From a virus (Duplodnaviria > Caudoviricetes): a stretch of 64,000 nt of DNA. Position 1 is the first letter of the stretch. Each line of letters starts with the position of its first letter. Shown here one piece after another: positions 2,230 to 39,085 of the stretch. The translations under genes and the position numbers were made by a program. Under the pieces are notes generated by a model that saw nothing but the letters and a program-made list of their open reading frames with translations, was not told the origin of the DNA and did not search any database. The stretch covers positions 30,226 to 94,225 of the IMG/VR virus record IMGVR_UViG_3300031760_003956. One strand, written 5' to 3'.

Positions 2230-5200
2230 ATGGCAGATGAAGATTTCAGACTACAACTATCAGCGGAAATAGGTAGTGACTCTATAAGTAGGGTTAAATC
2301 TCAACTTGACGAAATACAAAAGTCAGCTAAACCGATAACCTTAACAGGTGATATAGGGGCGTTGACTAAAGAAATTGGAGAGTTGAGGTCACAGCTTAAA
2401 TCTGTTAGTGCTGTTAAAATAGACGCTAATATTAAAACGGCTACAAACTCTTATAAAGAATTAGTTAATGTTGCTAAACAAATTGGTAATAAACAAATCA
2501 AGATTGCTAAACTTGATACACGGACAAATACTAATGAAATTAAAGCGTTACAGGCTGAGATAGATACTTTAACGGCTAAGGGTAAGGCTTTAATGGGTTC
2601 TTTCAATGGTAAGTTGTCGGCTGAACAGTTTAAGCAATTAGAGAATACAATAAAGGAAATTCAAACTACGACTCAGCAGACTATAGATGTTATCAATGCT
2701 AAGATGAAAGATAAGTCTGCGGTTGAGTTTCAAAAACAGGCTTTTGAAGATTTAAAAGCTAAAATAAAAGAAGAAGAACGGGCTGTCAGCGAATATAATA
2801 AAGTTCTTGAACAAATGAAGCGTTTGCAGTCTACTACTGAAAATGCTGGATATAGGGATTCAGTAGGTACTGCGACTATTGAGGGATACAAAACAAAACT
2901 TGAAGAACTTAAAGCTAAAGAGGTAGAGGTTCGTGAGAAATTTGCTGATTTAATCCCACAGGAAAGTATAACTAAGGCTGAAACTGGTTTTGCCAATATA
3001 ACTGCAAATATCGACAATATTGTTAGTAAAGCAGAACAGGCAAAAGAAAAACTCGTAGAGGCTATTCAGGGTACTCTTGCTAATGGTAATGCTTCAAATT
3101 ATGATGTGGCAATATCAAAAGTTAGTCTTGATATGAGCAAACTTTCTGCGGTTAGTGATGAAACACGGGAGAAAGTTCAGTTACTTAGAGATACTTTAGT
3201 TGAAATGCGTACTGCGTCTGAAAGTGGTGATGTTGAAACTCTTATTGCTAAAGAAAAAGAATTTTCAGATACTTTAAAGCAAGTACAAAATGAGTTAAAA
3301 ATCACGGCAGACAGAGAAGAAGAATTAGCACAAGCGGAGAAATTACTTAATGATAGAGCGATTCTATCTAATCAAATGGGCGTGTGGTTGAAAGAAAATA
3401 CTGCCGCTACAAAACAATTTGGTAATCAAATTAAAATACTTCAAACCGAGGTTAAGTCTTGTGATAATGTAAGGCTCGGTCAAATAAGACAAGAGTTTAG
3501 AATGATTACACAAGAAGCTAAAATGGCTGGTAAAACAGGTTTGGCTTTTACTGATAGACTCGGTTATCAAATAAAGAAGTTGTCAACGTATTTTAGTGGT
3601 CTTTATATTATTATGAGTACCTATAGAACTCTTAAAACAGGTGTTGAAACTGTTATTGAGTTGGATACGGCACTCGTTGATTTGAAGAAGACTACTGACG
3701 GTACTACTGAGCAACTTAATGAATTTTACGAGAGTGCGTCTGAGATTGGTAAGCAGTTGGGAGTTACGGCGAAAGATGTAATTCAAGCAAGTGCTGACTG
3801 GTCACGTCTTGGTTGGCTTCGGCTCGACCCTATATATAGAAATATATATAAGTAAATTCAGCTTTTATCGGGAAATCTCCTGAGAAGGACAATTCCGAGG
3901 GCAAGATAGAATGTTTAGTATATTCTAAACCCGTAACGAGTAAGTTTTACATACAGTAATGTATGTTTGCACGCTGAACACCTAAATACGAAAGTACAAG
4001 GTGATGATGTACTCTGCTCTGCAACTATAATCAAAATATAATATGAAATTGCAGAGGTAGGCAGAAATGACCTACCCCTTTCTTTTTGGAAAGAGTAACA
4101 AAAGGACTCAATTAAAGACGCTATTGAAATGGCTAAAACGTCATCTATTTTTGAAGCTATCTCACCGGATTTGGATATGAATGAATCGACCGATGGGTTG
4201 GTTTCGGCTATGAAGGCAAAACGAAAGTTTATGCCCTGTTGTATAGTAATATGCAACTTGTATACATTTAACTACAGGTAATCTCTAAAGCCTTGCACCA
4301 CAATAACGGAGAAATCACGTTATGATGGCACGAAAGTAGAAACAACGTAAGGATGATATAAGGTCAAAAGCCTAAGTATTGTGATAATGAGTGTTCTGTA
4401 GCCAAGTACCCTAACGTATTCCGTAGACCATACGGTATTAGTCGAGGGTAAAGGTTCAACGACTATTCTCAGTAGAGTTATGGACTTGTGAATAAGGGTG
4501 GAAATCCCGAATATCCATAACAATAGAAGTACGGCACAATCGCAAAGGTGTGAGTGAAAACCTCTTAAATGGAAAAGGTGTACCCCTATTAAATAGGGTG
4601 AAGAAATAGTCTATTCTTATATGAAAATATAAGTACAAAAGATTTAAAATTGAAGCAGATGACGCTTTAGATGGAATTGCGAGTAAGATTAATGCTATAG
4701 GTAATTCACAAGCAGTCAGTAACGGAAATATCGTTGACTTCCTTACTCGTTCATCTTCTGCTATGGCAGAAGCTAACAATACTTTAGATGAAACTATTGC
4801 GTTAGGAACGGCAGCAACAGAAATTACGAGGGACGCAGCTTCCGTAGGTAATGCTATGAAGACAAAACATTGTCTTTATATACAGAAATGTATATATAGA
4901 ACACATTTAATTGCAGGTAATACCTAAAGCCTTGCACCACAATAGCGAGGAAACTACGCTATGATGGTTTGAAAACGTAAGGATATTACAATGGTTGTTC
5001 TGCAACGAAGCACCTAAGTTAGTAATAATATGGTGAACGCTCAACGACCACTCCCTTGTCGGGTTGTAGGTTTACGAATAAGGGTAAAATCCCGAATAAC
5101 TACAGCAACAGAGGTACGGCACAAGCTAATGGTGTGGGTGAAATCCCCTTAAATGGAAAAGGTGTGGTTGCTATTCTGTTTAATACAGAATGTGATTAAG

Positions 5201-8200
5201 AAATGGTCTACTCTTGCGTGAAAGCGTAAGTTATCAATTGTGATAAGGTGTATGTTGCGAGTACACTTAATATTTGGAATAAGTATGAGAATTAGAGGCT
5301 ATGATGAAAGCACCAATGAATTTATTGGTGGCGTAGAAGTTCTCGATGGTAAAATAGCAAATCTTACGAAGACTGCTAAAAACGGATTTGGTGGCGTTTC
5401 TTTATTTGCTGACGAAGCAAAAACAACATTTAAAAGTACAACACAAATTTTAAGAGATATATCTGAGGTTTGGGATGACCTTACCGACAAAAATCAGGCA
5501 AAATTACTCGAAGCTCTTGCCGGTTATCATACGTTAGCCGGATTGTGTAGTAATACACAAAATAGTACATATTTAATTGCGTTGGTTGCCTAAAGCCTTA
5601 TACTACAATAATCGAGAAATCAGATTATGAGAGTTTAACAACATAAGGATATTACAATGGCTAATTCGCAGCGAAGTACCCTAACATTATTCTTAAAACA
5701 AAAGAACAGTTAAGCTGAGGGTACACGTTCAACGACCATTCCCGATAGGGTTGTAATAATAGAATAAAGGTGGGAATCCTGAATAGTTACAACAACAGAA
5801 GTACGGCTCAAATATATGGAGTGAGTGAAAACCTCTTAAATGGAAAAGGTATGCCCCTATTTTAAATAGGGTGAAGAAATGGTCTAAACTTATACGAGAG
5901 TATAAGAATGGTTATATATAAAAAATATGAGATATACTTATACGAATGATGATATTGATTTTTTAAGAAAATATTATCCAAACGGGGATTGGGAGAAAAT
6001 TGAACAAAGATTCCCGTTTTTATCAAAAACAGCAATATATAGAAAATGTCAAAAATTAAATATTGCTTCAAATAATACGCATAGAAAAGATTTTGACAAT
6101 ACTAAAAATAGACGTAAGTGGACGGAAAAGGAAACTAAAATATTAATGCAAAATTATAGTTATATTCCTTTTGACGATTTAATGAAATTATTACCAAATC
6201 GCACTAAAGATATGATTAATAATAAAGCAAAAAGATGTAATTTATTATCTTATCAAAAAATTACATCAAAATGGAAAGACTGGGAAGTTGAATATATACA
6301 AACTAATTGGTTTTTAATTCCCGATGTGATTATTGCGAAAAACATAGGAAGAACACAAAGGGCGGTCAAATGGAAACGAGAGCAAATGGGATTGTATAGA
6401 CAAAATTTTGAAAGTTTTTCTTATCCAACGATTTCAAAATATTTACGAGGTCAAAATCAACAATGGAAAAAAGAGTCTATGGAGAATTGTAATTATAAGT
6501 GTGTATTAACCGACAGTAAAAGTTTTGAGATACATCATTTATATGGTGTGAGCAATATTATAAATGATATTTTTGATTTATACCCTAAATACAAAGATAA
6601 ATCTTTTAAAGACTACTCTGAAAAAGATTTATCTTTTTTATTAACTGAATTTTTAAGAATACAGAGTTTATATCCGCTTGGTGTATGTGTGGATAAAAAA
6701 TTACACGTTTTGTTTCACAGTATGTACGGTCAATACTTTAATACACCTGAACAATGGTATAGATTTTGTGAAGATTATAAGAAAGGAGTGTATGAAGAAT
6801 ATATATAACCATTAACAGAAGTTGTGACTCTGTTTAATAAAATTGAAACGTCAAGGTCAAGTTGTTGCAGCTATGCTCAACAACTTCCAAACAGTAGAAG
6901 ATTCTCTTAATACAATGCAGAATAGTGCTGGTAACGCTATGCAAGAAATGTCAATTATTCAAGACAGTATTGAGTATAAAATGAACGCATTTTCTCAAAC
7001 TGCAACAGGAATATGGCAAAACCTTTTCAAGCGTGGCGATATTGGTGCTGTTATTGATTTATTTACAAATTTCTTATCAATAATAGATAAGATTACAGAC
7101 CACTTTGGTCTACTCGGCACAGCCGTAGGTATAACCGCTGGTATATTATCAGCAAAATTTGGCGTGGGTGAACTAATTAAACAGTTCTGTTTACTTATGA
7201 CACTAAGGAACGAATACGCTCACGAAACCTTTAACTAATAGTAATATAAACGAGATTGTGTTTGCTCGTATAACGGTTTATCGTTACACAATCAAGAGGG
7301 GTTTAGAAAAATAGGATAAACTGATATAAGTTAAAATTCTTATATCAATAGACTAAGACGTTTTATATGTTAAGCTACATAATACATATAAAACTATTAG
7401 CAGCCATTACCTTACGAGAGGTAGGTTCAGAGGACATAAACCTACACGGTGAGAATCGTGAATGAATGTTGCAAACTGTACCCGACAGTAGTTATGAGTT
7501 GGGGTAAAAATTTAACCATTGGCTAAATGGTGTGTCAAAAATAGTGGGATACTTCTTCCCTGTTACCTGAGCAAAAGAAGTTAAAATAGAAATTTTATGT
7601 ATCATAATGCACAAATAACACTTGAAAAACGTGCGAAAAGTGTAGTGAAGTAGGTTGAAAAAAGTGCGAAAAGTGTGTTTTGACGTATTTTGTTCACTTT
7701 GTATTTGTGCAATATGACGAATAAATAGCAACCAAAAAAGGTTGCATATAGAAAACGCAACCAAAAACGGTTGCGTTTGTTATTATACTGAAAGGGTATA
7801 ATTTGATTTTTACGATTCGGATTATACCTTAACGGGATATTTCCCATTTCGGCAATTTTTTCGGATTTGGGGAATAGATTGCCGATTTAAAAAGAAAGGA
7901 TTGGTAAAATGATATTTTCGGTTGATAGGTTTATTGAATTATCAAAATCAAAAATAAAAAAGAAATTTAAAAAAGTATATCTTTATGATGAATATAATAA
8001 TGCAACTGGTAGAAACAAAGAAAGGCGTTATTATTATAATAAAGAAATTATGTTATTTTTAAAAGAATGGGAGATTGAATTAACATATAAAACATTGATT
8101 CATAAGGGTGTTTTTACGGAGAAAGAATTGTCTTTTGAACAATTTATAAAACTATTTTATATAAAAATATTTGAGAATCGGTATTTATGTAGATTTATAG

Positions 8201-11200
8201 ATATAAAACCGATGATAGATTTTATTAATAGAGTTCGGCAAAATAATGATTAATCATTCTCCATAGGTTATTGCAGAGGTATAATTTTTGCCTTAATTGT
8301 TGTTTCTTTGTTTCATTAAATTCATTCTTGACTTCATTAGAAAGAATATTATTACGCTCTTTCAAACAAAGGACAACAAAAGGTGCGTAGAATATTGCGT
8401 CTGATATATTTATAAATGTATTATTATTCATTTTATTTATTATATCTTGGCGATAAGAAAATTCTTGCATAATAAATATACCGTCTATTTCTACGGATTC
8501 TTTGATTAGCTTAAATTCTTCTTCTGTTAATTTTCTATCTACAAAATCACTCATATTCTTCCCTACCTTAAAACTTATAACCACAATTCCGGCAAACAAA
8601 TTGACTTCTTGCGGTTTAATTAGTAACTAATCTACTTTATATTCATATAAACTTGCTTTCCAAGTACCATTTTCACGGCGTTGACAACTAACACTTTTTA
8701 TTTGAGGTTTACCGTTAATAGTCATATTGAAATCAAGATAAACGGTATCTTCATCTATTATATTGTAATCTCCTGTATAGACCACACTACTTACTTCTCG
8801 ATATATGCTCATAACTCTACTACAGTATGACATAGCTGCTCTTTCTGCTTTTTTGAGATAGTATGTACTCATTTGAGGTTTTGTATATTCTTGTTCGTAG
8901 TCGGTGTCGGAATAAGAATTTGTATTAGTCGGGTTATCGGTTGTATTGCTTTTCTTACAAGTAGTAAGAGATATAACTATTCCAATTACTACGATTATTA
9001 TTATTACTATTATTGAAACAAAAAATACGATTGAATTTTTCTCGGATTTATCTTTATTTTGTAGCATAATATAGCCTCCTTTGGTATTTAAACCAATTAT
9101 ATATTATCTTTATACACAATTCAAGTAATTTTGATAAATTCAGGTTACGTCTTTATATTCAGTTTGATATTCAAAACCGTTGAAGACGAATCGAAATTTG
9201 CTGGAATTAGAATAAAGAATAACTTATTAAGTGGTATAAAAGCAATAGCGAGTGAAGCCCCGAAGATTGATTTGGGTAAGAATTTTTCTGCTAATTTAGA
9301 TAAGCAAACAGAGTATTTTACTTCATTTAGAAATGCAGTAAATGAAGGTATGGCGGTTGATGAGGCTAAAACACAGTATTTATCAAGTGCTATGCAAGCA
9401 ACTCGTGATTATGTAAATGCGACAAACTTAGCAGAACAAAGCGAAGAAGGACTAAGAACCGCCGTTACTCAAAGTCAAGTGGCTTTAGTGGCACAAGGTA
9501 ATAGTCTTAGTAATACAAGGTCGTTGATTGCCGAGTATAACTCTGGTTTAAACACTACAGGTAATGTATGTAAAGAAACGGGATTAAATCAAACACAATT
9601 TGCACAAGCGGTAGCACAATCACGAACTGGTTTAGGTAATTATTTAAACAATTTAGACGGTGCGAAGGCTTCTATGGGTGGTTATATCGCTCAACTTGTA
9701 GGTGCTAAAATTGCTACGTTTGCTTTAAACGCTGTAACAACATTACTTAATGCTACTATTAGTATGGGTATTGGGCTTATTGCGTCAATGCTTGTAAGTG
9801 GAGTAGTTAGTTGGATTGATGATATAATTCATCATACTGAGAAACTTATTGAAGCCGGTGAAGAAGCTGAAAATAAAGTTAAGGAAATTAGCGAAACTTT
9901 TGAAAAACAAAAGTCTGTTATAAGTGAATCAACAACGCAATTTGCTGAATTGGCTCAGGGTGTTGATATGGTTACTGGTAAAAACAAATCATTGTCAACG
10001 TCTGAATATGAGGCGTTTTTATCAATTAGTAAAGACTTGGCAGAACAATTTACCGACCTTCCTGTTATTTACGATGAAAATGGCAATGCTATTGTTCAAC
10101 TTAACGGTAATGTCAATGATGTTACAAATTCTTTAAAGGAACTATTAGAGGTTGAAAGAGAAATAGCCAATCAAAAAATTGCAGATGAATTACCAAAGAT
10201 TTTTGATAAAACTAAGGCACAAAATGAAGTTTTAGAAGACGAATTATACGATATACAATCTAATTTATGGTATAACAAGTTAGATAAAGCTGGTGAAAAG
10301 CGACTTTCGATAGATGTAAATGGTTTAGATTTAGATGAAGTAACGAAGATACGAGAAAAATACGAGGCTTTATTTAAAAAATATAATATCCCAGCTTTAT
10401 TTAATAAAGGACAACAGGTTTGGAAAGATGATAAACTTGTATTTGATACTTTGTATTTTGATTTAAACGGAACTGTAAATGTTACTGATAAATTGAAAAA
10501 AGAATTAGAAAAAGGTACTTACGAAATTCAAAAAGAATTTGAAAGTAAATTAAGTGGAAATACTTTTCAAACACTTGTTAATAATGTTAATAAAAAATCT
10601 GCTGATAAACAAAACGAAATAAAGCAGAATTGGAGCAATTTAACTTCTAATATAAATAAATGGCTACCTACCCAAACCGACTATTCTGCTCTTTCGGAAG
10701 AAAGACAAAACCTTATCCAACGGTCTATTAACTCGTTGGATTATACTGCATTAAATTTTGATAAATGGGAAGACGCTGAAAAATATATTAAAGACCATTT
10801 ATTAAAGGTATTAGGTAAAGATGAAAACGGTAAATTTAATTTTGATATTGAAAAATATACAGATTTATCGGAAGCCTTTGACTCATTTAAAAAAAATAAA
10901 ATATCTCTAAAAAAATATCAAGAGTATTATAATACTGTTAAGACAAATCTTGAAGGTATTAAGGGCATTACAAAGGAAACCAAAAATGCTATATTAAATG
11001 ATTTTAATACTATTGGTTCATCGGGAGAAACTTTAGATAATGCTTATGAAAGAATTTTTAAACTTTCTAAAGGCGTAATATCGGTAAAAGACGCTGAAAA
11101 AGAGTTAAAAAATTGGAAGTACGATGATATTTCAGCTTTATTTAAAATTGACGCTAAAACTATAAAATCTTGGGATGATTTAAAAAACAAGATTAAAGAG

Positions 11201-14200
11201 TTTAAAGAAACCGATACAAGCAATTTTGATGAAAATGCTTTTATTGATGATGTTAAAAGGAGAGCAGACGCTTATTCTGATTTTCTTAAACAGTCAGCAC
11301 AACAAGGCGGTATTAATTATAAAACTGAAACTGATGAAAAGGGTAATGTAAAATCTCTTGGTGTAGACGCTCTTGCTTCTTATTATAGTCAAATTAAAGG
11401 TTATGATGAGGACAAACTTATTAAACGTACTGCACAAGGTATTAAACTTAATACACAAGAACTTACAAGATTAAATAATGAGGTTGCTAAACAAGAAAAG
11501 AGCAAAGTTGATGAAAGGATTGAAAAGTTACAAAAGAAACTTGGAAATCTAAATGAAAAGATTAATTCTTGTACGGACGCAGAAGAAAGATTAAACCTTG
11601 AAAATGAACGTAGTGGTATTCTTGATGATATTGAAAACACCGAACTACTTGCAGCCAATTATGAAGCACTAACTTCTAAGTATCAGGCTTGGCAAGACGC
11701 TTTGAGTAATGGAGAAGAAGGAGATTCTTATGACGCTATAAGAGATAAACTCAAAGATATTAAAGAACTATACGACAAGGGTTTGGTTGGTACAAATGAG
11801 TTTAGAACTTATGTTGATTTACTGACGTTTAAGGATTTATCAACGGCTAATGTTGATGATATTGTTAAGGCTTATGAGAATCTTGACAATAATATTAAGA
11901 ATACAAGTTATAGCGTAAAAGACTTCCTCAAAGAAGATGAACAGGGTGTAAATAACTTCTTGTCTGCTATGAAAGAATTAGGTTACTATACACAAGGTAA
12001 AGATGGTGAATGGACTCTTAAAATTGCAGATAAAGAAAGTCTTGCAAAACAGCTTGGTATTAGTACGGAATTTCTTGAAAACATTGTACAGAAGTTAGAT
12101 GACTACGATTTCACCGTAGATATTGATATTGGTGGAATGTCAGATAATGACTTACAAAATGCTTTTGATGATGTTCGTAAGAAATTAAAGAAAGCAAAAC
12201 TCACCGATATGACATTTTCGTTCGATGAGAATACTACTGAATCACAGGTTGACGACCAACTTAAAGAGATTCGTAGGATTATTCATAAGAAGTGGACTAC
12301 CGTAAATGGTGAAGGTCAAGAGGTTATTAAGTTTGACATTGATGATGAAAATGCTAAAGCTGCTCAAATTATTCTTGCTAATCTTTTAAAGAAAAAGCAA
12401 GAATTTCAAGATAGCGGAGCGTTGGCGTTAAAGGTTGATGTTGACAAAGACTTAAAAGACCCGAAATCTGACGCTGGTAAGGCTATTAATAACATTCAAT
12501 CCTTTAATAAAGGTATGAATAAGTATCAAGTTGATATTCAAACAGGTACGGATACGAAAAAATCGACTAAGAAAATTACTAAGGCTGTTGATGGTCTTAA
12601 TAGTATTAAAGACAAAAAAGTTCGTGCTGAACTTGGACTTGATGATAAGAAATTTAAGAAGGCTGTTAAGAATATTAAGGCTAAAGTTAAAGCTGGTGCT
12701 GATTTAGACCAAAAAGATATTGACATTGTTAAATCCAAAATCAAAGGTATTGACGCTAAAGCACTCGTACATCTTGGAGTTGATAACAAGGACGTAGCTG
12801 AGGAAAAGAAACGTCAAGAAGGCGAAGTTATCAATAAAAAAGTTCAATTTAGCGTTGAAAAAAGTGAAGTTCTTAAATTTGAGAAAGAAGACCACGATGT
12901 AAAGGCTATTCTTAAATATGCTCCACAGATTGATGAAGACGCATTTACCCGATTAGTTAATCAGGCTAAAACGAGATTACAAAATCAGTTAAAAAATGTT
13001 AATCCTACGCCAAAGTCAAAGAAAAAGAAGAAAGCTAAAGTCAATGGTACTGCATTTGCAAGGGGTAATTGGGGTGCTAAAGACTCCGGTAGGGCTTTAG
13101 GTGGAGAACTTAAACCTGAAATTCACGTTTTTGCTAATAGTGGACGTTGGGAACTTATTGGCGAACGCTCTCCTGAGTTCTTTAATTATCGTAAAGGCGA
13201 TATTATTTTCAACGGAGAACAGACCGAACAGTTACTTAAATATGGTAAGATTAATTACGGTAGTAAACGTGGTAATTCATTCTTAGGTGGTACTGCGTTT
13301 GCTGGTTCTTCTGCTCGTGGTGGTATTAATCTTAATAGTCAAGGATTAATACCTAAATCTAAATCTACGAAGAAATCTTCATCGAGTTCTAAATCATCTT
13401 CTTCATCTTCTAAAAGTAAGAGTAGTTCTGATAGTAAGAGTGATAAGGACACACCACTTGATAAGTTTAAAGATTGGTTTAGTAAACTGTTTGATTGGAT
13501 TGAGGTTAAACTTGAACGACAAACTGATAAAATTAGTGACTATATTACTAAGGCTGAACGTGCAACAGAGCGTGGTAGTTATGACGCTTCTGTTAAGAAT
13601 TATCGTAAAGCTATAAACACAACAAGTGGGCTTGTTGAAACCGAGGGTAAAGCAAGTAGGCGGTATAAGAAACAAGCTAATAAAACATTGGACGTTGCTG
13701 TTAGCAAAGGCGTTATTAGCAAAAAGAGAGCAAATTCGATAAAGAAACTTGTTAAGTCGGGTAAAATTGATATTAGTAAGTATAGCGAAAGTGTTAGAGA
13801 AGTTATAGGTGATTATCAACAATGGTATGACAAAGCCAAAGAAGCTAAAAAATCTATCGGTGAACTTCATAATAATATTCGCACTTATATCAAAGACCTC
13901 AAAGATGTTCGTGACGCTCAACGTCAAGCAAAACTCGATAAACAGAGTACATTCACGGGTATTGGTACAAGTGGTTTTGCTTATACTTCTGCGTTTAAGA
14001 ATAGTCAACTTAATTATCAAAACTCACAGCTTAATGCTCAAAATTCTGCTTATAAAACTGAAACTGATAAAGTTGTAAGTGATTCTAAGAAAATTGGTAG
14101 TAGTGCTACTTCTGCTCTTGGTAAGTTAAAGCCGAAGAAGAATCAGAAGAAATATAAGCAAGCTATTAAAAATGCTAAAAATGCAATTAAAGCTAAAAAG

Positions 14201-16759
14201 AAAGTTAAAGACGCTGACTTAAAAACTATTAAAAAGCATAGTGTCAAGACATATGAGAAATTATATGCTTATAATCTTTCTTTGGATAATGTTGAAACGG
14301 CTAAACTTGAACAAGCGGCTAATTATGCTGAAACGAGTAATCAAAAATTTGCTAATCAAGAAGCTAAATATGAGAACGACAGGCAAAAGAGCGAAGACAA
14401 TATTAGTCTATTCCGTCAAAGAGCCGATAATGCTACTTCTGCAAGTGGTAAGAATACTCAGTTAGATAAAGTTGTTGCTCAGTACAATAAACAACAAACA
14501 GATAGACAAGCTGAGATTAATGATTTTGCGAATCAAGCAACGGCTTTTGGTAAAACTATTTCTAAACAATCTACTAAGGGTAGCGGTGATTATAGTCAAT
14601 ATATTACTCAGGCAAAGAATAACGTAACTGCTGGTACTACAATTAGTGCTTCTGTTCTCGCTAAACTTGCTGAGGGTTATAGTAAAGGTAAGATTACCGC
14701 TGGATTCTATCAGGCTTGTGTTGATTATAATAACGCACTTCAATACAAGAAACAAGCGGAAGACCAACAAGAGATTGAAAACGAAACAATTATAGCCGAA
14801 AAACGTGCTATTGGTGAAGAGAAGATAAGCAATATTCAGAAAGATTATCAAAATAAACTTTATAATAATAGAGTAAATGGTTTGACCTCTGAACAGTTAG
14901 GTGCTATGCGTGATATTAAGACCGCAAAAGGATTATCGCTTGACGCTAATGACTATCAACAGCAGATTCAGCTAAGTCAACAACAGAGAAATATTTTGAT
15001 AGCAGAACAACAAGATTTAATAAATCAAATGAATCAAAATATTGCTGATGGTTTGTGGACTTATGATTCTCAGGAATACATAGACGCTTCAAAAGCACTT
15101 GATGAAATCGGTGTTTCGATTGCCGGTTGTACAAAGAATGAAATTGAATGGAATAATGCGATTATAAACTTACCATTTGAGAAATATGAGAAAGCACTTC
15201 AAATCATCGACAAAGTTAAAGGTGCTTGGAGTGCATACGCAAGTATGATGAAGACGATTGGTAAGGATTTAGATAAGAGTGTTGAAACTGCTTATCTCCA
15301 ACAGATAGCACAAGAAACCGAACATTATCAAACCACAGTAAAGCAAACTGCGGAGGCTTGGGCTAATTATCAAAAGGCGTTAGCTGATTCTGAGGGTGTT
15401 TATGGTGGTAAGACTGCTGAGGAATGGTTTGGTGAGTATAACGATTTTGCGGCGGCTCAATATTCTTCTTATGAGAATATTAAGAAAATTAAAGATGAAC
15501 TTCGTGATGAGTTCTATCTTAAACCTTTTGAAAAAGCTATTGAAAAAGCCGAGAAACTTAATGGTTTGTTGGAGGGTATCGCTGAATTTATTGACGAGAG
15601 TATGTACTATGATAAAGACGGTAAGATAACCGAATATGGTATTGCACAGGTTGGTCTTTTGACTGCTGGTTACGAAAAAGCAAGAGAGCAAGTTGGCAAT
15701 TATCAAGCAGAACTTGATGAAGTCAACAGACTGTATGCAGAGGGTTATTATACTGCCGATGAGTATGCTGATAAGGTTAATGAAGTACAAACTAATATGC
15801 TTAACTCAGCTAAAGATATGAAGTCTTCTATGAATAGCATAGTTAATATGTATAAAGATATGGCTAAAGCTGAGTTAGATAGTTTGTTTAAGTTAATCGA
15901 AACTCGCCGTGAGGCTATTTCAGCGAAAAAATCTTACTATGACTTAGACAAAACGCTCCGTGATAAAAACTCAGAAATTCAAAATCTTGAAGCACAGATA
16001 GCAGCACTTGAAACTATGGACGATTTAGAGTCTAAGGCTCAACGTGCAAGATTACAGGCTGACTTAAAAGAGAAACAGGATGACCTTAACGAAACTGTAA
16101 ACGACCACTTAATTGAGATTAGTCAGAACGCTCTTGATGACTTGAAAGACAGTTTACAAGACGCTTTTGATGATAAGTGGGAGCATATATTTACTGATTT
16201 AAGTCAAGTAACACAGCTTATGAGTGCTGCTAACGCACTTACTAAGGGTTCGACTTTAACTATTAATAATGCTCTTAATAAGTTACTTGGTTATTATGGT
16301 ATTGACCCGAACAAAGCACAATTAAGTGATGTTGTATCTACGGCTTCTGCCGGATACGCAAGTGGTACAAGGTCTGTATCTCAAAGTGGGTTAGCTTGGA
16401 CTCAGGAAGGACGTAAACCTGAGTTTATTGTTAGAAAATCTGATGGTGCTATTCTAACTCCTTTAAGCAGAGGTGACGGTGTAATTCCTAACGACCTAAC
16501 TGATAACCTGTTTGCTTGGGGTAAGATTACACCCGAAGAATTTATCGGTAAGACGGGTGCTGATTATAACACACCTGAAACCAATGTCAACAATAATGTT
16601 TACAATAATTACGATAGTTTGATTAGAGTAGACGGTAATGTTGACAGTACAGTAATTACAGATTTAAAGGCGTTTGGCAAACAATTTTACGAGGACTCTT
16701 ATCAATACACACACAGACGTATTGTAAGTGATTTGAAGAAAATTGGTGTTAAACGATAA
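2230..16759 (+). CDS. Tail tape-measure protein, ~3360 aa after splicing; join(2230..3814,4106..4217,4642..4863,5278..5524,6846..7169,9167..16759)
   Basis: Exons sum to 10083 nt (3361 codons). Junctions restore tape-measure-type sequence: ADWSRLG-Y-SIKDA, VSAMK-A-FKIEA, GNAMK-T-ISMRIRG, LEALAG-KRQGQ, KFGVG-IFKT. Long coiled-coil; followed by Dit-like and tail genes. Confidence 0.88.
3815..4105 (+). ncRNA. Group I intron 1 in tape-measure gene (291 nt, no ORF)
   Basis: Exon ends in U3814 paired with G3826 in P1 (UUCG-capped); P3 TTCAGC/GCTGAA; P7 GAGTA(3938-42)/TACTC(4010-14); terminal G4105; splicing gives T|AC = Tyr in frame. Confidence 0.88.
4218..4641 (+). ncRNA. Group I intron 2 in tape-measure gene (424 nt, no ORF; C-G at 5' splice site)
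   Basis: R motif GGTTCAACGACTA; P7 GACTA(4461-65)/TAGTC(4607-11); P1 GGC|A with TGCC and a GAAA tetraloop; terminal G4641; GC|A = Ala in frame. Confidence 0.88.
4864..5277 (+). ncRNA. Group I intron 3 in tape-measure gene (414 nt, no ORF; C-G at 5' splice site)
   Basis: P7 GACCA(5046-50)/TGGTC(5204-08); P1 AAGAC|AA with TTGTCTT; terminal G5277; AC|A = Thr in frame; strongly similar to intron 2. Confidence 0.88.
5525..6845 (+). mobile_element. Group I intron 4 in tape-measure gene (1321 nt) encoding an HNH homing endonuclease
   Basis: P1 CCGGT|/GCCGG with U5524-G5537; P10 ACGTT(5531-35) pairs exon AACGT; P7 GACCA(5734-38)/TGGTC(5880-84); ORF looped out by a perfect 12-bp stem 5908-5919/6801-6812; terminal G6845. 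Confidence 0.9.
5927..6808 (+). CDS. Intron-encoded HNH homing endonuclease with N-terminal Myb/SANT-like repeats
   Basis: Repeats YTNDDIDFLRKYY / WTEKETKILMQNY / WKDWEVEYIQTNW; C-terminal CVLT...EIHHLY...GVCV..KLHVLFHSMYG. Confidence 0.82.
   Translation: MRYTYTNDDIDFLRKYYPNGDWEKIEQRFPFLSKTAIYRKCQKLNIASNNTHRKDFDNTKNRRKWTEKETKILMQNYSYIPFDDLMKLLPNRTKDMINNKAKRCNLLSYQKITSKWKDWEVEYIQTNWFLIPDVIIAKNIGRTQRAVKWKREQMGLYRQNFESFSYPTISKYLRGQNQQWKKESMENCNYKCVLTDSKSFEIHHLYGVSNIINDIFDLYPKYKDKSFKDYSEKDLSFLLTEFLRIQSLYPLGVCVDKKLHVLFHSMYGQYFNTPEQWYRFCEDYKKGVYEEYI
7608..7886. repeat. Cluster of direct repeats and hairpins inside intron-5 cargo
   Basis: TTGAAAAA(C/A)GTGCGAAAAGTGT at 7622-43 and 7655-76; GCAACC-N6-GGTTGC at 7728-45 and 7757-74; long stems TGCACAAATA/TATTTGTGCA, GGTATAAT/ATTATACC, TCGGCAAT/ATTGCCGA. 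Confidence 0.8.
7909..8253 (+). CDS. Hypothetical basic protein (intron-5 cargo)
   Basis: 114-aa ORF with RBS GAAAGGA; Lys/Arg/Tyr-rich; no motif recognised. Confidence 0.6.
   Translation: MIFSVDRFIELSKSKIKKKFKKVYLYDEYNNATGRNKERRYYYNKEIMLFLKEWEIELTYKTLIHKGVFTEKELSFEQFIKLFYIKIFENRYLCRFIDIKPMIDFINRVRQNND
8225..8554 (-). CDS. Hypothetical protein (intron-5 cargo, antisense to tape measure)
   Basis: ORF 8225..8599 on the track; more likely start ATG at 8554 (MSDFVDRK) after AAGGTAGGG. Confidence 0.55.
   Translation of the reverse strand: MSDFVDRKLTEEEFKLIKESVEIDGIFIMQEFSYRQDIINKMNNNTFINISDAIFYAPFVVLCLKERNNILSNEVKNEFNETKKQQLRQKLYLCNNLWRMINHYFAELY
8627..9067 (-). CDS. Single-pass membrane protein, moron/superinfection-exclusion-like (intron-5 cargo)
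   Basis: N-terminal hydrophobic helix IVFFVSIIVIIIIVVIGIVISL, then Thr/Asn-rich linker and small extracellular domain; RBS AGGAGG. Confidence 0.7.
   Translation of the reverse strand: MLQNKDKSEKNSIVFFVSIIVIIIIVVIGIVISLTTCKKSNTTDNPTNTNSYSDTDYEQEYTKPQMSTYYLKKAERAAMSYCSRVMSIYREVSSVVYTGDYNIIDEDTVYLDFNMTINGKPQIKSVSCQRRENGTWKASLYEYKVD
9096..9124 (-). promoter_or_regulatory. Sigma-A-type promoter driving the antisense cargo genes
   Basis: TTGAAT (9124-9119), 17-nt spacer, TATAAT (9101-9096), upstream of RBS AGGAGG and ATG 9067. Confidence 0.75.
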
Positions 16760-39010: not shown

Positions 39011-39085
39011 TGGAGGCGACTGGCAGATTTGAACTGCCGAATCAGGCTTTTGCAGAGCCGTGCCTTACCACTTGGCTAAGTCGCC
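39011..39085 (-). tRNA. tRNA-Cys(GCA), complete with encoded CCA
   Basis: GGCGACTTAGCCAAGTGGTAAGGCACGGCTCTGCAAAAGCCTGATTCGGCAGTTCAAATCTGCCAGTCGCCTCCA folds to a cloverleaf. Confidence 0.93.

Follow-up and report, generated by a model that had tools for sequence, protein, structure and literature searches.

Introduction

Group I introns interrupt the tail tape-measure gene at three sites, TMP-IVS1, TMP-IVS2 and TMP-IVS3, in prophages of the Bacillus cereus group (Tourasse & Kolsto 2008, PMC2504315). The part of that report drawn on here describes paralogous introns at neighbouring sites, different introns at one site, and an endonuclease gene that is often lost. Here we analysed positions 2230-16759 of a 64,000-nucleotide (nt) stretch of DNA (hereafter the window), which is part of a 94-kilobase (kb) viral contig (Duplodnaviria; Caudoviricetes; IMG/VR record IMGVR_UViG_3300031760_003956). 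We propose, with a probability of about three in four, that this region is one tape-measure gene with five group I-type introns, the fifth of which would combine a divergent ribozyme with a swappable cassette of accessory genes.

The introns of the window resemble the TMP introns in several respects. They occupy several sites of the same host gene and are of the IA1/IA2 type; related introns are adapted to neighbouring sites through P1 and P10, many copies lack a complete endonuclease gene, and presence varies among related prophages (PMC2504315). Going by the descriptions in that part of the report, the TMP introns differ in number, at most two per gene compared with five here, and none is described there with non-endonuclease or antisense genes, unlike intron 5 of the window (PMC2504315). 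Because tape-measure introns had been described, introns in an essential tail gene are not new, contrary to what an initial annotation of this DNA had implied. What appears new is the presence of five introns in one gene, and the combination of a ribozyme with an antisense accessory cassette in intron 5. A literature search for introns with defence or moron cargo found nothing relevant, which is weak evidence of absence.

Among other phages, Staphylococcus phage Twort reportedly has a gene, orf142, with three group I introns, and phage T4 has several self-splicing IA-type introns, in td, nrdB and sunY. These phages have fewer introns per gene than the window, and their open reading frames (ORFs), where present, are sense-strand homing endonucleases. 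The nearest analogue of intron 5 in layout is the IStron (e.g., CdISt1 of Clostridioides difficile), which combines an IS200/605 element with a group I ribozyme; the ribozyme is at the 5' end and is followed by ~1-1.5 kb of foreign genes and a short tail with the 3' splice site. Unlike that of an IStron, the cargo of intron 5 has no TnpA/TnpB match, lies mostly on the antisense strand and varies by exchange among relatives. The element also keeps to a single site in a single host gene. Phage morons of the superinfection-exclusion lipoprotein kind (e.g., Ltp of S. thermophilus phage TP-J34, PMC3952083) are small membrane or lipoprotein genes with their own promoter and terminator in the late region, in an orientation that suits expression independent of the late genes. 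The cassette of intron 5 is alike, with a weak match to a Sie-like PHROG family. Known morons sit between genes, whereas this cassette lies within an intron inside a gene.

The interrupted gene and its relatives

As the initial annotation described, the window ORF list gives a fragmented map across 2230-16759, and removal of five insertions yields one frame. The six joined exons (Table 1) make 10083 nt, that is, 3360 codons and a stop, with no internal stop codon. Each of the five insertions ends in G (omega-G; 4105, 4641, 5277, 6845 and 9166), and exons 2-5 sum to 905 nt, which agrees with the ~1 kb of exon given previously. Exon 1 matches PHROG 4211, tail length tape measure protein (expectation value (E) 3e-17). 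Exon 3 matches profile positions 68-139 of the Pfam domain PF10145 (PhageMin_Tail) and exon 4 matches positions 146-201; taken singly, each of these consecutive halves falls below the cut-off (26.9 and 20.4 bits vs 33.2). Exon 6 is homologous to the continuation of uninterrupted tape-measure proteins, and the gene directly after it carries DUF6558, a phage tail protein N-terminal domain. The PhageMin_Tail domain, the PHROG match and the position upstream of distal-tail genes mark the gene as a phage tail tape-measure gene.

Relatives of the gene revealed how it reads without the insertions. A viral contig (L003) encodes a continuous homologue of 2456 amino acids (aa) at 4547..11917. It aligns as one segment over spliced residues 332-1372, which spans all five joins, and is gap-free at joins 1-4 (...WSRLG/YSI..., ...MKAFKIE..., ...MKTISMR... 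and ...LAG/KRQGQ..., where the slash marks the join). Another protein, P0005, is continuous and ungapped through join 5 (...NIG/IFKK...). The initial observation that the junctions restore tape-measure sequence was confirmed.

A second contig (L001/L002), with 97% nucleotide identity to the window, lacks introns 1 and 3 to the base: 3814 joins 4106 and 4863 joins 5278. The boundaries of introns 1 and 3 are therefore fixed by natural alleles without them. L002 has intron 2, with an additional 1.4-kb insert between window positions 4633 and 4639 that contains a 451-aa ORF, clearly an HNH homing endonuclease (PHROG E 1e-58). It also retains intron 4 and intron 5; the first 740 nt of the latter are the same as in the window and the cargo is different. 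From the absence of introns 1 and 3 in L002, the introns would be dispensable mobile elements. The initial annotation had proposed that the five splicing events form a rate-limiting checkpoint on virion assembly. A full-length ruler does by definition require every splice, but no observation here supports a regulatory role. A 97%-identical phage without introns 1 and 3 fits selfish, dispensable elements better than a regulatory device, and the lack of two introns in so close a relative speaks for tolerated parasites.

Introns 1-4

Introns 1-4 have the make-up of conventional IA-type group I introns, and support for this assignment is strong. All core helices occur in canonical order in the four introns, as seen in Rfam alignments and, for intron 1, in a manual fold that contains P1, P2, P3, P4, P5, P6/6a, P7, P7.1, P8, P9, P9.1 and P9.2. 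The gathering score of the Rfam Intron_gpI model (RF00028) is 50 bits, at which the whole window gave only a transfer RNA (tRNA); permissive filters were used for sub-threshold matches. The model then aligned at full length to 4233-4633, 4854-5230 and 5515-5906 (introns 2, 3 and 4; scores in Table 1), in agreement with the predicted 5' splice sites.

Introns 2-4 are paralogous, with a mean column identity of 73%, and P7 shows a compensatory change between these paralogues. The insertion sites of introns 2 and 3 (4217/4218 and 4863/4864) share the context GCTATGAAG(G/A)C, followed across the site by A. This suggests that one intron may have spread to a look-alike site. The 293-aa product of the ORF in intron 4 shows an HNH-like CxxxC...EIHH...H pattern by eye in its C-terminal third, and its N-terminal half matches PHROG 323 ('D5-like regulator'). 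A Pfam search of this ORF gave no HNH match, and we regard it as a putative HNH-type homing endonuclease.

A probable divergent ribozyme in intron 5

Intron 5 was found in 11 copies of one type (type A), all at the same tape-measure site. These are in the window, L002, L015, G006 and seven metagenome contigs, which a search with an 18-nt core motif recovered. Nucleotide identity of the ribozyme across the copies is 73-77%, compared with 29-37% identity of the flanking tape-measure proteins; the first ~400 nt of the intron are conserved far above the host gene. The exon phase is retained in every copy. A search of viral contigs for an intron-less allele of the type-A site gave only chance matches outside tape-measure genes. 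In a search of GenBank phage DNA the region gave a single 158-nt match, and the intron 5 ribozyme gave none.

The guide sequence is complementary to both exons. In P1, 7218-7224 pairs with 7163-7169, the final 7 nt of exon 5, and the U7169.G7218 pair at the cut is invariant. P1 is kept in all copies, with a compensatory change of C-G to U-A. P10, which was examined for intron 5 and for lineages B and C at the same site, pairs 7212-7216 with 9168-9172 (nt 2-6 of exon 6) and is kept in the 11 copies, with a compensatory change of A-U to C-G in L028 and L037. At the other end of the intron, 9160-9165 is complementary to 7473-7478, directly 3' of the P7 3' strand, which makes an extended P9.0 of 6 base pairs (bp). 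It is conserved in 10 of the 11 copies (L025 has a U.G variant), and the terminal G is retained in all 11.

The helices of intron 5 were assigned on an alignment (A4) of 10 sequences, the copies apart from L002, several of them closely related. The core at 7433-7478 is invariant across them, except for a double compensatory change of P3 in L015. The fold that we tested (~370 nt) is pseudoknotted and has 88 pairs; it includes P1, P2/P2a, P3, P4, P5, P6/6a, P7, P8, two P9-type hairpins and a long-range helix. In this alignment 93.6% of the fold is paired, compared with 33-44% in slid controls, and 33 pairs are changed on both sides, compared with 2-11 in the controls. Covariation supports P2-P6, P8 and P9; where P7 and P8 are invariant, covariation says nothing on them. 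Segments like the classical Q and R elements are also present. P3 was reassigned to 7312-7315/7441-7444; an earlier candidate, GGGGTT with AAACC after P7, was rejected, as covariation pairs it with the AAACC after the guide sequence (P2). A group II intron at 7170-9166 was rejected as well, since the interval does not begin with GUGYG and lacks both a domain V and a reverse transcriptase. Intron 5 is likely a divergent group I intron of a separate lineage, for which support is good but indirect. The claim of five group I-type introns thus finds support at all sites, strong at introns 1-4 and of this indirect kind at intron 5.

Two further features lie near the 5' end of intron 5. Its first five nt (from 7170) pair with 7183-7187, a near-copy of the 3' tail (9158-9166); it is possible that this segment and the genuine tail compete for J7/9, or for the intron 5' end, as a conformational switch. 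Most type-A copies retain a cluster of stop codons (TAA C TAA TAG TAA) at 7233-7250, just 3' of the guide sequence. These stops would release ribosomes reading from exon 5 before they reach the ribozyme core.

Spliced intron or split gene

Several observations weigh against a gene with five spliced group I introns. No intron meets the Rfam gathering score, and intron 5 gave no group I or group II match at all, including when 7150-7640 was scanned alone; a joint scan of four relative loci was empty at E <= 0.01. A P1 pairing is present in all five introns as the initial annotation stated, with the near-universal U.G at the 5' splice site in introns 1, 4 and 5, whereas introns 2 and 3 have a good P1 with C-G (C4217, C4863). 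No other register is possible at these two sites because a terminal G is required and, for intron 3, because of the intron-less allele. The P7-type pairing claimed for every intron is deviant in intron 5, where the usual register has a G.U or a bulged G and not the guanosine-binding G-C. Intron 5 also has an additional hairpin between P3 and P4, and its long-range helix, which connects the P1 loop with the region after P9, is a departure from canon. Because three features depart from canon, membership of group I is likely and falls short of proven. Sense-strand terminator-like hairpins and antisense units within intron 5 could hamper synthesis of the 2-kb intron RNA. Finally, gene callers begin the C-terminal part at exon 6 in relatives, via a TTG from the intron tail.

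The most serious alternative is that introns 1-4 are real and 7170-9166 is not spliced, an accessory island having split the gene into cooperating products of ~852 and ~2531 aa, like other phage 'genes in pieces'. It has to be taken seriously because Rfam is empty here and because the insertion holds sense and antisense ORFs, a promoter-like site and terminator-like hairpins, that is, signals and opposite-strand genes of its own. The frame of exon 5 continues 22 codons into the insertion to a stop at 7238, and the two halves are 7.7 kb apart in G001 and G005. Four database homologues start M-(I/F)-F-x-T-(I/V)-E-D-E exactly at residue 1 of exon 6, and their contigs all have an insertion with antisense genes at the intron 5 site. 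The TTG abuts exon 6, as expected of a start, yet a Shine-Dalgarno motif is absent from the 25 nt upstream of exon 6 at all 13 junctions, compared with 32 of 36 long window ORFs that have one. This TTG is probably merely the conserved end of the insertion. In addition, a split gene would give no role to a guide sequence that is complementary to both exons and carries compensatory changes. The insertion closes with 7 conserved nt that are complementary to J7/9, covariation marks its first 370 nt as a structured RNA, and exon phase is kept in every copy. On this balance we consider a split gene unlikely.

It is highly improbable that the gene is a decaying one of a defective prophage, in which the insertions are mere disruptions. 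The contig is incomplete (CheckV estimate 68%) and a relative with a huge insertion is classed as a provirus, yet the six exons are open over 10 kb with in-frame joins, the same architecture with long intact ORFs occurs in >13 diverged phages, and the tail genes downstream are intact. Least credible is that site-specific recombination excises 7170-9166 as DNA ahead of late expression. The Phage_integrase-family tyrosine recombinase encoded directly upstream of the tape-measure gene (1139-2173) might do this, and a gene of that family is also directly upstream in L017, but the boundaries show no direct repeat or common core, the recombinase gene is outside the element, and the logic of the guide sequence is specific to RNA.

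The cargo of intron 5

Three cargo ORFs lie between the ribozyme and the tail of intron 5 in the window (Table 1). PADLOC assigned none of them to a defence family. The 146-aa ORF has a weak match to PHROG 8545, 'superinfection exclusion Sie-like' (E 1.7e-4), a strong ribosome-binding site upstream of its ATG at 9067, and a minus-strand -35/-10 match (10/12) at 9124-9096. No likeness to a homing endonuclease or transposase was found among the cargo ORFs of the window and its relatives, only marginal zinc-ribbon matches. L002 shares two of the three cargo gene families at 30-34% protein identity despite its 97%-identical flanks. Five other type-A copies have a homologous double zinc-ribbon protein encoded in antisense and adjoining the 3' splice site; a lipoprotein-like gene replaces it in the window and in L031. 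We infer that the cassette is an accessory unit of the moron type, carried along by the intron.

The cargo region at 7911-9118 of the window has been replaced or has diverged relative to 9070-10247 of L002. A 72-nt block (8544-8615 in the window) is identical in the two cargoes and looks like a recombination joint.

Table 1. Features of the interrupted tape-measure gene. Coordinates are those of the window unless a relative is named.
Feature	Position	Strand	Description
Exon 1	2230..3814	+	528 codons + 1 nt; raw ORF 2230..3855; aligns with L003 tape-measure protein
Intron 1	3815..4105	+	291 nt; predicted ORF-less IA-type group I; Rfam Intron_gpI 17.1 bits only
Intron 1 P1	3811-3814/3826-3829	+	U3814.G3826
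Intron 1 P3	3857-3862/3973-3978	+	core pairing
Intron 1 P4	3868-3873/3893-3898	+	core pairing
Intron 1 P7	3938-3942/4010-4014	+	core pairing
Intron 1 P8	3979-3983/3999-4003	+	core pairing
Intron 1 P9	4017-4024/4049-4056	+	core pairing
Exon 2	4106..4217	+	112 nt
Intron 2	4218..4641	+	424 nt; predicted ORF-less group I; Rfam 36.3 bits, E 1.2e-6
Exon 3	4642..4863	+	222 nt
Intron 3	4864..5277	+	414 nt; predicted ORF-less group I; Rfam 47.8 bits, E 4e-10
Exon 4	5278..5524	+	247 nt
Intron 4	5525..6845	+	1321 nt; core 5525-5906, ORF 5927-6808, 37-nt 3' tail; Rfam 39.8 bits, E 1e-7
Exon 5	6846..7169	+	324 nt; C-terminal end ...FGVG
Intron 5	7170..9166	+	1997 nt; group I-like ribozyme of divergent type at ~7170-7540, then accessory cassette and short 3' tail
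Intron 5 guide sequence	7212..7224	+	P1 strand 7218-7224, P10 strand 7212-7216
Intron 5 core	7433..7478	+	P7 5' 7433-7437, P3 3' 7441-7444, P8 7445-7460, P7 3' 7466-7470, J7/9 7473-7478
Terminator-like hairpins	7728..7778	both	inside intron 5
Cargo ORF, 114 aa	7909..8253	+	no family; 30% identity to L002 counterpart
Cargo ORF, 124 aa	8225..8599	-	antisense, no family; 34% identity to L002 counterpart
Cargo ORF, 146 aa	8627..9067	-	antisense; N-terminal membrane anchor/lipobox-like segment, Sie-like
Intron 5 3' tail	9160..9166	+	P9.0 strand of six nt (pairs with J7/9) and the terminal G 9166
Exon 6	9167..16759	+	2530 codons + stop; starts IFKTVEDE; ORF open from 9131
Double zinc-ribbon genes	L002 9757-10257(-), L015 3652-4419(-), L022 1233-1736(+), L028 1582-1989(+), L037 9103-9447(-)		always antisense to intron

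Other occupants of the intron 5 site

The site of intron 5 is also occupied by other elements. L017, L018 and L007 have a different ribozyme lineage (lineage B) at the identical codon, with a P1 that has U.G and two compensatory pairs and a P10 of up to 9 bp (9 bp in L018). In L004 a 7,728-nt insertion (lineage C; 8323-16050; identical in L005 and L006) lies at the same tape-measure site. Its 5' exon ends in U, and joining of the exons keeps the frame open. At the far end, immediately behind a G, 16051-16058 is the perfect complement of an 8-nt guide-like segment (8344-8351), as in a P10-type pairing of 8 bp. In both lineages the guide sequence matches both exons. Rfam scans of L018 480-1000 and L004 8290-9130 gave no group I or group II match, and no recognisable ribozyme core was found in the L004 insertion. 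The cargo of L004-L006 encodes KwaA/KwaB-like proteins, an NsnB/AriA-like ATPase, an HTH-S24 repressor-like protein and a zinc-ribbon protein, and the insertion may be a giant intron with a defence island. We tentatively suggest, as an idea to be held with somewhat less than even confidence, that the site after ...F-K-N-V-G is a 'safe harbour' for at least three unrelated group I-type lineages that carry accessory cassettes exchanged among phages, and that splicing would let a defence or moron island exist within an essential structural gene.

A proposed course of splicing and its implications

In the five-intron reading, all introns would be spliced from the late transcript to give a 3360-aa protein. 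The data show the anatomy, the alleles that lack an intron and the covariation; the splicing itself and the timing of cassette expression we infer. Introns 2-4 would have spread to adjacent sites of the conserved PhageMin_Tail region, and among them only intron 4 appears to keep an endonuclease-like ORF. At intron 5, a ~370-nt ribozyme at the 5' end would align both exons with one guide sequence, and the distant 3' splice site would be marked by the 6-bp P9.0 and the terminal G. The swappable cassette between ribozyme and tail would be transcribed mostly in antisense from its own promoter. Intron 5 could thereby let accessory genes sit within an essential gene without destroying it.

The window gene appears to be a real, extreme case of a known phenomenon; five introns within 905 nt of exon is an extreme load for a gene of a bacterial virus. 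Standard gene callers report this gene as at least six fragments, and the proteins that they call in relatives begin at intron tails. Intron 5 escapes Rfam altogether, and therefore a whole phage intron lineage goes unrecognised. The presence and absence of introns relative to a 97%-identical phage offers a natural system for intron gain, loss and ectopic spread. Furthermore, intron 5 carries an antisense cassette, probably transcribed on its own, in place of a homing endonuclease, which suggests that accessory or defence genes can use introns as platforms for insertion into essential genes. The initial annotation laid no stress on how intron 5 differs from the others, in its lack of an Rfam match, its 2-kb length and its antisense genes.

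Neighbouring features

The recombinase gene directly upstream of the tape-measure gene is in an unusual location for a gene of the Phage_integrase family. An integrase-family gene takes the same upstream position in L017, and the L002 ORF at this position aligns with the recombinase gene of the window at 77% nucleotide identity. The tRNA gene lies at 39014-39085 on the minus strand (Rfam 62 bits). Outside the window, a weak Intron_gpI match (20.3 bits, E 2.8e-4) was found at G000:C1:13107-13366 (= L042 1501-1760), in a gap between same-strand ORFs of 486 and 358 aa. It could represent a sixth intron of this phage, located in a different gene.

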